Assembly (NCBI RefSeq): GCF_024700885.2
Contig: NZ_CP117016.1
Strand: one strand, 5' to 3'
DNA: 64,000 nt
Source of the DNA: Escherichia coli
Lineage (GTDB): Bacteria > Pseudomonadota > Gammaproteobacteria > Enterobacterales > Enterobacteriaceae
Shown: positions 2,987-55,182 of the stretch, one piece after another
Layout: each line of letters opens with the position of its first letter
Numbering within the stretch: position 1 is the stretch's first letter
Made by a program: the position numbers and the translations under genes
The notes under the pieces: model-generated
Seen by the model: only the letters and a program-made list of their open reading frames with translations
The model's database searches: none
Told to the model about the DNA's origin: nothing

Positions 2987-3274
2987 GCTTATTTTTCGTC
3001 AGATTATTTTTCAAAAAATTCCCGTGCATAAAAATTTGAGGAGGCGTTCGGTGCCCGGCGGGGTCGGGTTTGTCCTGAAAACGCCCCCCACCCCGTCATA
3101 CAGCCTCATCAGCGATTGCGGAAACATTCCATAACCTCGCGGTCACGGTCGGTTAATCGCTTCGCTGTGATGCGTTCTGCGCGTCCTGACGCTTTATCTT
3201 TATGCCCTGTTTCCTGTGTCTTCCATGCGTCACGCTGCCTTATAAGTCCACGGATAAGGCGGTTTTGTTCCCGC
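2987..3274. other. Candidate cos/packaging site region between HNH gene and terS
   Basis: 288-bp non-coding gap in an HNH-cos-terS-terL arrangement (as in HK97-like cos phages); GC-rich segment cggtgcccggcggggtcggg...ccccccaccccgtc. Confidence 0.3.
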
Positions 3275-52434: not shown

Positions 52435-53069
52435 TGAACAAAGCAAAACGCCTGGAGATCCTCACTCGCCTGCGTGAGAACAATCCTCATCCCACCACCG
52501 AGCTTAATTTCAGTTCGCCTTTTGAATTGCTGATTGCCGTACTGCTTTCCGCTCAGGCGACCGATGTCAGTGTTAATAAGGCGACGGCGAAACTCTACCC
52601 GGTGGCTAATACACCTGCAGCGATGCTTGAACTGGGCGTCGAAGGGGTGAAAACCTATATCAAAACCATTGGTCTTTATAACAGCAAAGCAGAAAATATC
52701 ATCAAAACCTGCCGTATCTTACTGGAACAGCATAATGGCGAGGTTCCGGAAGATCGTGCTGCGCTTGAAGCCCTGCCTGGTGTAGGTCGTAAAACAGCCA
52801 ACGTCGTATTAAACACTGCATTCGGCTGGCCGACTATTGCTGTCGACACGCACATTTTCCGCGTTTGTAATCGTACTCAATTTGCGCCGGGGAAAAACGT
52901 CGAACAGGTAGAAGAAAAGCTACTGAAAGTGGTTCCGGCAGAGTTTAAAGTCGACTGCCACCATTGGTTGATCCTGCACGGGCGTTATACCTGTATTGCC
53001 CGCAAGCCTCGCTGTGGCTCTTGTATTATTGAAGATCTTTGTGAATACAAAGAGAAAGTTGACATCTGA
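52434..53069 (+). CDS. nth: Endonuclease III
   Basis: 211-aa ORF with HhH-GPD region and C-terminal 4Fe-4S Cys cluster. Confidence 0.97.
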   Translation: MNKAKRLEILTRLRENNPHPTTELNFSSPFELLIAVLLSAQATDVSVNKATAKLYPVANTPAAMLELGVEGVKTYIKTIGLYNSKAENIIKTCRILLEQHNGEVPEDRAALEALPGVGRKTANVVLNTAFGWPTIAVDTHIFRVCNRTQFAPGKNVEQVEEKLLKVVPAEFKVDCHHWLILHGRYTCIARKPRCGSCIIEDLCEYKEKVDI

Positions 53070-53679
53070 AGAAAAGGGGTAACACCGATTACCCCATTCA
53101 TAACCTTTCTTTATCCTCTTTTAAAACATCTTTTTAACGTCAATGATGCCATTGCTTAGCGTTATCATCAGGTAATCCGTTTGCGGATAACCAAAAATGC
53201 AGGTTAATTGTTTTTTTAATAGCGAAATTTTCTATTCATTCGTGATCAAGATCACGATGCTGTGGCAATGTAAAAACATTGCAAGAACTAGGTTAAAATC
53301 ATTTAAATTTACACACGCAACAAATATTGACCTACAAAACATTACACTGGCTATTTTTCAGAAACTGGACTATCTCACTAGGAAAAACGCTAAATAGCAG
53401 AACATATCGCCGTTAAGCCATCATCCCCCTCTCAGGGTAGTGAAAAAATCTGCCGTTACGTTTTTTGAAAAATTTAACGCTGGATAACATTTCCCGGAAT
53501 GGTTGAATTCCCCGCCTCAGTTATATGTAACAGATTATTACAAAGGACTTGTCTGAAAGTGCAAGATAGTGAACATTACCTGCCGTTTCCCCTCCCACTA
53601 TAACAATTGCGCGTATGTTTTTTAGGCATAACGCGAGAAAGCACCCCCGTTAATATGGGATGTAAAAAAAGAGGTAAAA

Positions 53680-55182
53680 GTGTCCACTGCAAACCAAAAA
53701 CCAACTGAAAGCGTCAGTTTGAACGCTTTCAAACAACCGAAGGCGTTCTATCTCATCTTCTCGATTGAGTTATGGGAACGTTTTGGTTATTACGGCCTAC
53801 AAGGAATTATGGCTGTTTACCTGGTTAAACAACTGGGTATGTCTGAAGCGGATTCAATCACCCTTTTCTCTTCCTTTAGTGCCCTGGTTTATGGTCTGGT
53901 CGCTATCGGCGGCTGGTTAGGTGACAAGGTACTGGGTACTAAACGCGTAATTATGCTTGGCGCTATTGTGCTGGCGATTGGTTATGCTCTGGTTGCCTGG
54001 TCTGGTCACGACGCCGGTATCGTTTATATGGGTATGGCGGCTATTGCGGTCGGTAACGGCCTGTTTAAAGCTAACCCGTCTTCTCTGCTTTCTACATGCT
54101 ATGAGAAAAACGACCCGCGTCTGGACGGTGCATTCACCATGTACTACATGTCCGTCAACATCGGCTCTTTCTTCTCTATGATCGCCACCCCGTGGCTGGC
54201 CGCGAAATACGGCTGGAGTGTTGCGTTTGCGTTGAGCGTTGTAGGCCTGCTGATCACTATCGTTAACTTCGCCTTCTGCCAACGCTGGGTTAAGCAGTAC
54301 GGTTCAAAACCAGACTTCGAGCCTATCAACTACCGTAACCTGCTGCTGACCATTATTGGTGTTGTGGCACTGATCGCTATCGCCACCTGGCTGCTGCACA
54401 ATCAGGAAGTTGCGCGTATGGCGCTGGGCGTTGTTGCCTTTGGTATCGTGGTTATCTTCGGTAAAGAAGCCTTCGCGATGAAAGGTGCTGCGCGTCGTAA
54501 AATGATCGTTGCCTTCATCCTGATGCTCGAAGCCATTATCTTCTTCGTGCTGTACAGCCAGATGCCAACGTCACTGAACTTCTTTGCGATTCGTAACGTT
54601 GAACACACCATTCTGGGCCTGGCCGTAGAACCTGAGCAGTATCAGGCACTGAACCCGTTCTGGATCATCATTGGTAGCCCGATTCTGGCCGCTATCTATA
54701 ACAAGATGGGCGATACCCTGCCGATGCCAACTAAGTTTGCAATCGGTATGGTGATGTGTTCTGGTGCGTTCCTGATTCTGCCGCTGGGTGCAAAATTCGC
54801 GTCTGACGCAGGTATCGTGTCTGTAAGCTGGCTGGTCGCAAGCTATGGCCTGCAGAGTATCGGGGAACTTATGATCTCTGGTCTGGGTCTGGCAATGGTT
54901 GCTCAACTCGTTCCGCAGCGTCTGATGGGCTTCATTATGGGTAGCTGGTTCCTGACCACTGCCGGTGCAAACCTGATTGGTGGTTATGTTGCGGGTATGA
55001 TGGCTGTGCCGGATAACGTTACCGATCCACTGATGTCACTGGAAGTCTATGGTCGCGTATTCTTGCAGATTGGTGTCGCTACTGCCGTTATTGCAGTACT
55101 GATGCTGCTGACCGCGCCGAAACTGCACCGCATGACGCAGGATGACGCTGCAGACAAAGCGGCGAAAGCTGCTGTAGCGTAA
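53680..55182 (+). CDS. dtpA: Dipeptide/tripeptide permease A (POT family)
   Basis: 500-aa ORF with GTG start; 610-bp upstream non-coding region. Confidence 0.96.

Follow-up and report, generated by a model that had tools for sequence, protein, structure and literature searches.

The 610 bp of non-coding DNA between nth and dtpA in Escherichia coli most probably constitute a control region of dtpA (tppB/ydgR), in which several inputs act on transcription and after it, and which contains no extra gene. The arrangement fits a region of three layers, namely an OmpR-dependent promoter, an upstream array constrained in its spacing and a structured leader targeted by the small RNA GcvB. In the model that we propose, dtpA would be transcribed from positions 53582–53584 by a weak sigma-70 promoter, TTGTCT-17-AACATT, which would require OmpR bound to tandem half-sites at 53527–53546 (about −47), whilst GadX, bound near −151, would act as a repressor and YdcI, also reported to bind the region, would be a further input. 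The 96–98 nt of the 5' UTR, with two hairpins, an A-rich tract and the Shine-Dalgarno sequence, would be the part on which GcvB acts. Upstream of the promoter, the roughly 330 bp from 53199 to 53526 carry about ten conserved blocks predicted to bind proteins, among them a candidate CRP site close to the consensus at −335 and several Lrp-like sites. We infer that these blocks might assemble a higher-order nucleoprotein complex dependent on their spacing, by Lrp-type wrapping and/or CRP-mediated bending or looping, and that signals of carbon, amino acids, anaerobiosis and the envelope would thereby converge on the one dtpA promoter. This architecture, like the naming of the proteins that bind distally, is predicted from the sequence.

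The gap is, for the most part, the already characterised promoter region of dtpA, to which a preliminary description of the analysed stretch of 64,000 nt (hereafter, the window) had given the wrong label of leader. The control of dtpA by OmpR, GadX, YdcI and GcvB was known, and the gap drops out as a candidate for a hidden gene; as far as we could find in the literature, an upstream scaffold has not been described for dtpA before.

The nth-dtpA gap and the OmpR-dependent promoter

This part of the window is E. coli DNA with the gene order rsxE-nth-dtpA-gstA. A 751-bp query over the gap had matches of 95–100% identity in 5,423 of the 5,426 complete genomes of E. coli, nth lying to the left and dtpA to the right. 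The last base of nth in the window is 53069, and the GTG start codon of dtpA stands at 53680; the 610 bp between them (53070–53679) are equivalent to NC_000913.3 1,712,159–1,712,768 of K-12 MG1655 (K-12 coordinate = window coordinate + 1,659,089), from which they differ at 10 positions. The preliminary description was right about the non-coding gap and its composition, as the GC content is 37.2% against 50.7% for the whole window, and also about the phased A-tracts, even if the phasing is weak: 18 A/T-tracts of at least 4 bases were counted against 8.2 ± 2.5 in shuffled sequences, and a periodicity of about 10.1 bp was modestly above that of the shuffles (P = 0.006 for tract centres and P = 0.019 for AA/TT steps). 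Direct repeats, which it had also listed, could not be found as a general feature, since a repeat finder and TRF returned only short two-copy matches at chance level, and no tandem array. The 20-mer that it quoted, TGTAACAGATTATTACAAAG, is a single pair of half-sites phased by 10 bp (GTAACA/TTACAA), equally readable as the inverted repeat TGTAA-N7-TTACA.

This 20-mer lies in a published OmpR-binding region. The supplement of Seo et al. 2017 gives an OmpR ChIP-exo peak for dtpA at 1710621–1710680 of U00096.2, with OmpR as activator at −46.5 from the start, and that of Seo et al. 2015 gives a GadX ChIP-exo peak at 1710534–1710554, with GadX as repressor at −151. The coordinates were converted to NC_000913.3 with the offset that holds here, +1976 (nth end at 1710182 and 1712158, respectively), and then to the window by subtracting 1659089. 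Back-calculation from the two tables sets the start of dtpA transcription at 53582–53584. The leader is, therefore, 96–98 nt long and not 610: only the last stretch of the gap lies downstream of the published start, and the remainder of the supposedly long leader is mostly DNA upstream of the promoter. The converted OmpR peak spans 53508–53567 and its centre, 53537.5, is 1 bp away from that of TGTAACAGATTATTACAAAG (53527–53546, plus strand; centre 53536.5), whereas the GadX peak occupies 53421–53441. The motif is nearly invariant among 61 aligned sequences, and its tandem half-sites, TGTAACAGAT/TATTACAAAG, show the phasing of about 10 bp and the pattern xxxACAxxxx of OmpR half-sites, 2 bp upstream of TTGTCT.

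Sigma-70 promoters were scored in 67 orthologous sequences and the scores were projected onto the alignment. The best positionally conserved promoter of the plus strand was TTGTCT-17-AACATT at 53549–53577 (−35 TTGTCT at 53549–53554, 17-bp spacer, −10 AACATT at 53572–53577), with a median score of 7.4 over 67 species, the next best reaching 4.3. Its −10 element stands exactly where the published start requires it, the two positions having been derived independently, and the TTG of the −35 element as well as AACATTA are invariant in the 61 aligned sequences. A strict consensus promoter scan of the gap found none; moreover, it has been reported that an A-to-T change adjoining the −10 element increases the dtpA mRNA by a factor of about 23 and was selected in three long-term cultures run in parallel. 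Taken together, the failure of the strict scan and this up-mutation fit a weak promoter dependent on an activator. A long 5' leader with a start far upstream was considered and discarded, as the published start and the conserved promoter both point to the region of 53582–53584.

A published PdtpA-lacZ fusion that carries the fragment from −201 to +15 depends on OmpR, being strongly reduced in an ompR deletion, and it is activated at low and repressed at high OmpR. In the preliminary description dtpA had been called osmoregulated, which is imprecise: dtpA depends on OmpR, but in the passage of Brosse et al. 2016 that cites Goh et al. its transcription is reported not to follow osmolarity. YdcI has been reported to bind the dtpA intergenic region, and its motif to be an 'AT-rich inverted repeat separated by 7 nt'. 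The inverted repeat TGTAA-N7-TTACA fits such a motif, so that YdcI may share the site of OmpR. Read as a TyrR box, the same repeat was rejected, as that box needs N8. With two ChIP-exo peaks inside the gap, the reported binding of YdcI and about 12 conserved blocks, the suggestion that much of the region consists of sites for regulators is borne out.

The closest known systems for this part of the region are ompF and ompC. As in these genes, dtpA has a weak sigma-70 promoter with OmpR on tandem half-sites, phased by 10 bp, just upstream of the −35 element and, as for ompF, it is activated at low and repressed at high OmpR. By contrast with both, dtpA is reported not to follow osmolarity and has only one strong published OmpR peak, that at −46.5. 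The ompF gene also has a distant OmpR site, F4, near −360. In dtpA, conserved elements comparable to F4 are found several hundred bp upstream, but the far-upstream one is a CRP-type palindrome instead of an OmpR site.

Conserved blocks at fixed distances upstream of the promoter

For comparison, 80 orthologous loci from 23 genera were fetched. In all 80 of them nth and dtpA are adjacent, and in about 70 the gap measures 570–620 bp. The alignment revealed about 12 conserved blocks between 53199 and 53583, with unconserved spacers between them: identity between genera is 64–80% in the blocks and 31–36%, near random, in the spacers. For most intervals the number of bases between blocks is, nevertheless, equal in all 71 aligned species. 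Over the 372 bp from the most distal block, A1, to the −10 element, the differences consist of a 1-bp change specific to Escherichia and two or three single-base events, and these ~372 bp, from 53199 onwards, are essentially free of indels in about 60 species of more than 20 genera.

The spacing was rechecked by a motif search that does not rely on the alignment. The distance from the OmpR site to the −10 element was 45 bp in 81/81 cases, that from block C2 to the OmpR site 56 bp in 79/79, and that from block B3 to C2 74 bp in 78/78; from B3 to the −10 element, 175 bp were counted in 80/80 species, Kosakonia and Phytobacter included. Both motifs, A1 and the −10 element, were located in 71 species, and in 59 of these they lie 369 or 370 bp apart. 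The control sequences behaved differently: the 105-bp gap between dtpA and gstA takes 19 lengths in 76 species, and the nth-proximal 130 bp as well as the 5' UTR also vary in length. The fixed spacing of the blocks, with spacers saturated by substitutions and controls of variable length, argues for selection against indels over 175–370 bp.

These data also bear on the idea that the gap is an AT-rich, curved spacer to which nucleoid proteins such as H-NS bind as a non-specific coat, with sequence-specific function in the proximal ~100 bp alone. Low GC, the excess of A/T-tracts with their ~10-bp phasing and the tolerance of the nth-ydgR gap for the integration of large cassettes are what such a spacer would show. 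It would not account for twelve blocks at 64–80% identity amid spacers at 31–36%, for spacing exact to the base pair over 175–370 bp in 60–80 species where control non-coding DNA varies, for a CRP palindrome fixed in its position, or for the GadX peak at −151. The comparative data largely refute this explanation, which appears to us extremely improbable.

In Kosakonia and Phytobacter, all that lies upstream of B3 is replaced by a divergent UPF0093-family membrane-protein gene, whereas the proximal 175 bp are kept exactly; the distal module is, thus, dispensable in some lineages. Since the fragment from −201 to +15 already reproduces the control by OmpR, the distal 180 bp may matter only under conditions other than those of the fusion assay.

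The distal blocks are here described in the order in which they stand. Block A1 (gCAGGTTAATnnTTTTTTT, 53199–53217) is near-invariant across genera. Its reading as an intrinsic terminator of the rsx-nth operon was rejected, as no stable stem was present in the 34 nt upstream, with a mean of −3.2 kcal/mol and a mean z of 0.0 (63 distinct sequences, folding compared with shuffles). Block A2 (AAAtTTCTAT, 53220–53235) matches the Lrp SELEX consensus YAGHAWATTWTDCTR on the minus strand, where TAGAAAATTTCGCTA (53220–53234) scores 14/15, the best such match in the blocks, and a match of at least 11/15 is kept here in 21–22 of 24 representative species. After A2 comes a CRP-type palindrome at 53238–53259, described below, and then block A3 (53261–53285), in which TAACA/TGTTA repeats were read from the alignment. 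These repeats might be likened to the TGTTA direct repeats of ArcA type, having an 11-bp spacing in most genera and being degenerate in E. coli. Blocks B0–B3 (ACAnnACAtTA, ATTTTTCAGA, CTATaTCACT and AGCAGAACATATCGCC) cover 53335–53412. Block C1 (cAGTGAAAAAAnCnnCC, 53438–53455) has a match similar to the Lrp consensus that is kept in 22/24 species, and block C2 (AAATTTAACGCTGGATAACATTT, 53468–53494; mean pairwise identity 78%) contains two half-sites phased by 10 bp that resemble OmpR sites, with the centre near −103. The half-sites of C2 may be similar to ompF F1 and ompC C1.

The palindrome has its core, GTGATCAAGATCAC, at 53242–53255 and its centre about 335 bp upstream of the start. It reads cGTGATCAAGATCACg in E. 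coli and TGTGATCnnGATCACt in many genera, agrees with TGTGA-N6-TCACA and is the single match in the 64-kb window, where 0.06 were expected, which makes it a candidate CRP site. The exact core was found in 32 loci in all, and in 27 non-E. coli loci it stands at the same distance from dtpA (locus positions 2562–2566); from the palindrome to the −10 element there are 328 bp in 55 species and 329 in 6. The dtpA locus does not appear in the supplement of a CRP ChIP-exo study, and the literature that we searched yielded neither a mention of CRP here nor binding data of CRP or Lrp for the locus. Judged by its sequence, the palindrome has the wrong spacing or the wrong key bases for matS (GTGAC-N3-GTCAC) and for FNR (TTGAT-N4-ATCAA), and both readings were discarded.

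Lrp-like matches of at least 11/15 that are conserved in position occur at 53227, 53342, 53354, 53373, 53403, 53445, 53472, 53507 and 53536, and tppB is named in the literature among the genes affected by Lrp. In the E. coli gap the matches to the Lrp consensus are not enriched (18 against 13.6 in shuffles, P = 0.17). The spectrum of conservation has an apparent peak near 33.7 bp. A conserved A/T phasing of 10–11 bp was not significant in the variable spacers (P = 0.10), and none was seen in the conservation profile either; the absence of such phasing leaves Lrp-type wrapping without independent support.

In the promoters pap, ilvIH, gltBDF and malEp-malKp, which are controlled by Lrp and/or CRP, we found a second group of similar systems. 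As in these, more than 300 bp upstream of dtpA carry many predicted sites for regulators, Lrp-like matches recur every ~30–40 bp, the spacing of the blocks is strict, and the gene itself, tppB, is listed among those affected by Lrp. In pap, CRP binds at −215, and the candidate CRP site of dtpA is likewise far upstream. The differences are that for dtpA the CRP and Lrp sites are predicted ones, with the Lrp-like matches not enriched over chance in E. coli, and that dtpA lacks a divergent partner gene and shows no sign of phase variation.

On these grounds, we tentatively raise the possibility, to which we give somewhat less than even chances, that the ~370 bp upstream of the −10 element act as an enhanceosome-like, phase-locked scaffold of 'frozen length' for CRP, Lrp, OmpR and others, the spacings of which would not have changed since the genera of Enterobacteriaceae diverged. 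If this is true, the scaffold would exceed in size and rigidity what is usual at bacterial sigma-70 promoters. The 175–370 bp, intolerant of indels and saturated with substitutions in more than 20 genera, are a natural test case for selection on helical phasing and on the distance between regulators. They also lead to a concrete prediction, that CRP at −335 and the Lrp-type sites act on dtpA, which could matter to work on promoter architecture. The nth-ydgR gap has been used in published work as a tolerated integration site for large cassettes and reporter libraries; landing-pad insertions in this supposedly neutral gap may split dtpA from its conserved upstream elements.

Search for a small RNA or a small protein gene

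The preliminary description had left room for an unannotated small RNA or small ORF in the gap. Its distal half would, in that case, contain a gene, either for a small RNA, such as a ~190-nt transcript of the minus strand from about 53260 (TTAACC-18-TACATT, promoter at 53296–53267) to a hairpin and T-run at 53095–53066, or for a small protein, the candidates being ORFs of 66 aa on the plus and 36 aa on the minus strand. What speaks for such a gene comes from E. coli. The promoter-like site, with a score of 8.1, is the best of the minus strand; the terminator-like hairpin of that strand is followed by TTTTCTTC and overlaps the nth stop; and both ORFs are uninterrupted in the present strain as well as in K-12.

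Beyond E. coli these features are, for the most part, not kept. The T-run and the −35 element of the minus-strand pair are absent even in E. albertii. Both ORFs are intact in 0/66 non-Escherichia species; among the four Escherichia loci other than E. coli, stops or a frameshift break the 66-aa ORF in every case, and the 36-aa ORF is interrupted in two and open but diverged in two. Neither has a Pfam match, and the conservation profile of the gap has no 3-nt periodicity. Among all ORFs of at least 8 codons in the gap, none outside invariant DNA is kept in the 66 non-Escherichia species. A minus-strand ORF of 12 aa at 53538–53576 is intact in 54/66 species; it lies inside the invariant promoter/OmpR site and its intactness is explained by conservation of the DNA, as its start and stop codons fall in invariant sequence. 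An ORF of 11 codons on the minus strand of B3 (MFCY...), which seemed conserved on visual inspection, was rejected, as Salmonella, Kluyvera, Pseudocitrobacter and Trabulsiella have lost its ATG.

With regard to RNA, an Rfam search of the gap at E ≤ 10 gave only noise, none below E = 0.67, such as snoRNA and Bacteroides sRNA models at 12–19 bits, with all scores far under the gathering thresholds, and no conserved structure was detected on the minus strand. A small RNA gene with its own conserved promoter and terminator, or with a conserved structure, was not found, since the promoter- and terminator-like pair is specific to E. coli and to the minus strand. In E. coli the hairpin next to nth (GGGGTAACACCGATTACCCC, 53076–53095) is terminator-like on the minus strand only. 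It belongs to the nth-proximal spacer (53070–53198), which is poorly conserved (conservation digits mostly 0–5) and variable in length, the distance from the nth stop to A1 taking many values across species, most commonly about 118–136. GC-rich hairpins of differing sequence, which on the plus strand have no U-tail, occupy the same place in several genera (e.g., Citrobacter, Franconibacter and Siccibacter). The hairpin in the promoter spacer (CTTG...CAAG/CCTG...CAGG) was also discarded as an RNA element, as its register shifts among genera and many Enterobacter and Lelliottia sequences break the pairing.

The gap carries no annotated feature in K-12, nor in 60 E. coli genomes drawn from the whole ranking of the 5,423 matches. 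Among the rows listed, a published Cappable-seq table of start sites has no entry for the locus, and a Term-seq supplement has none that names nth or dtpA. The gap most probably holds no additional gene, and the idea of a small RNA or small ORF is unsupported; as an explanation of the gap we regard it as very unlikely, and a weakly expressed transcript specific to E. coli is possible.

The dtpA leader and GcvB

Conserved RNA structure in the gap was detected only at 53599–53691, and only on the plus strand (z = −5.3, sliding RNAalifold with column-shuffled controls); in the windows upstream of about 53450 the consensus energy was at or near zero on both strands. The structured segment overlaps the 5' UTR of dtpA (53584–53679, plus strand). 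Hairpin 1 (CGCGUAUGUUU-UUU-AGGCAU-A-ACGCG, 53610–53635, plus strand) forms at the same place in 56/56 distinct orthologous sequences, despite differing stem sequences, with a mean z of −2.3 against shuffles and 84% of the sequences below −1.5. Hairpin 2 (CCCG-UUAAUA-UGGG, 53646–53659, plus strand), in which RNAalifold columns 150–153 pair with 161–164, is closed by a GU pair in 44 sequences, by AU in 11 and by GC in 5, and a double change occurs at one pair. It is followed by an A-rich tract, the Shine-Dalgarno sequence AGAGG (53670–53674) and the GTG start of dtpA (CDS 53680–55182, plus strand), which is kept in 79/80 loci.

No hairpin with a U-run was found in the UTR. The short ORFs that start in it (TTG at 53607, ATG at 53615) do not stay intact throughout, and that of 12 aa at 53615–53653 is intact in only 18/66 species. 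A leader of riboswitch or attenuator type was, accordingly, rejected, having no match to a curated RNA family, no terminator and no consistently intact leader ORF.

A longer leader might still arise from a second, distal promoter downstream of the CRP site, for example TTGACC-19-TATTTT with its −10 element at 53352. Used under some conditions, it would produce a leader of 220–380 nt, and blocks B and C, together with the proximal promoter region, would also be RNA elements. This is the top-scoring promoter-like site of the plus strand in E. coli (8.65), a strong and conserved CRP-type palindrome lies upstream of it, and of the whole gap it is block B3 that is predicted to pair best with GcvB region R1 (−19.5 kcal/mol, about the 1st percentile). 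However, the −35 element of this promoter lacks conservation, and its score has a median of only 3.1 over 67 species; the centre of the CRP palindrome lies about 115 bp from the predicted start, outside the standard positions for activation; RNAalifold found no conserved structure on the plus strand at 53040–53500 (energy 0.0); and both ChIP-exo studies used the proximal start. We therefore consider a second promoter unlikely, and retain the control region with one promoter and a short leader.

GcvB is an Hfq-dependent small RNA of which tppB/dtpA is a verified target in Salmonella, through R1 and with two pairing sites, and GcvB-dtpA chimeras have been reported by RIL-seq in E. coli. As in the other GcvB targets dppA, oppA, gltI and cycA, the mRNA of dtpA, which encodes a peptide transporter, has an unstructured C/A-rich stretch and an A-rich tract beside the Shine-Dalgarno sequence. 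GcvB control is verified for the Salmonella gene, whereas the pairing sites in E. coli dtpA are predictions of a weakly discriminating scan, which with 40-nt windows was uninformative. Codons 2–9 of dtpA (53685–53706) are rich in CA and moderately complementary to R1; the duplex predicted there has an energy of −17.6 kcal/mol, between the 1st and the 5th percentile of the window background (mean −9.9, 5th percentile −15.8).

Replacement of the distal gap and its use as an integration site

Among the 80 orthologous nth-dtpA loci (here numbered L), the gap between the two genes was enlarged to about 1,060-1,185 bp in Kosakonia (L045, L047, L052, L055, L056, L059, L060 and L070) and Phytobacter (L081), where it contains a divergent membrane-protein ORF of 141-143 aa, with a longer copy of about 203 aa in L070, matching the Pfam entry UPF0093/DUF2269. 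This ORF replaces the distal conserved blocks of the gap, and the 175 bp proximal to the dtpA -10 element, on its upstream side, are exactly unchanged in length. In E. coli, the same region (53070-53679) is the 'nth-ydgR' integration site, a landing pad that receives large constructs as well as genome-integrated promoter libraries; depending on the exact insertion point, inserts at this site may cut dtpA off from the conserved upstream elements.

Locus tags point to gene calls in the gap of some genomes. In E. coli N3 (L002) one locus-tag value, AXA56_RS16015, is missing between nth and dtpA, and in K. pneumoniae MGH 78578 the tag KPN_01971 lies between the orthologues of these genes; therefore, a gene in the gap was called, or later withdrawn, by some annotations. 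At the dtpA end of the gap, the base at locus position 3001 belongs to the GTG start in 79 loci, and in Huaxiibacter chinensis (L062) to codon 2 (TCT); we rejected a true start-codon difference, as the DtpA match in L062 begins at residue 2 and the position is simply offset.

The hairpin behind nth and block B3

A GC-rich hairpin is found 3' of nth (53076-53095), and at the equivalent position in L007, L019, L048, L077 and other loci, its position being constant across genera and its sequence variable. The plus strand of the hairpin carries no U-tail, and in E. coli the element is terminator-like on the minus strand only (TTTTCTTC). It may act as a 3'-end stabiliser; as an alternative to this role, the rsx-nth operon may be terminated in a Rho-dependent manner.

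Further downstream, the conserved block B3 (53392-53413) is the invariant AGCAGAACATATCGCC, which gave the best predicted pairing of the gap with region R1 of the small RNA GcvB (-19.5 kcal/mol). The block is located about 180 bp upstream of the dtpA start site and, unless a distal promoter exists, its C/A-rich DNA probably matches R1 by chance.

Promoter-like sites on the minus strand

In the columns corresponding to 53505-53513, most non-Escherichia loci (e.g., L043, L046 and L065) have GATTATACC, which reads on the minus strand as TGGTATAAT, a perfect extended -10 directed away from dtpA, whereas Escherichia has GAATTCCCC in its place. Judging from these motifs, a divergent promoter may have been present here and lost in Escherichia. 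Moreover, the conserved ACTATA or AATATA in the dtpA UTR (53597-53602), corresponding to TATAGT or TATATT on the minus strand, is a good predicted -10 for an antisense start within the dtpA leader, conserved in position and moderate in score.
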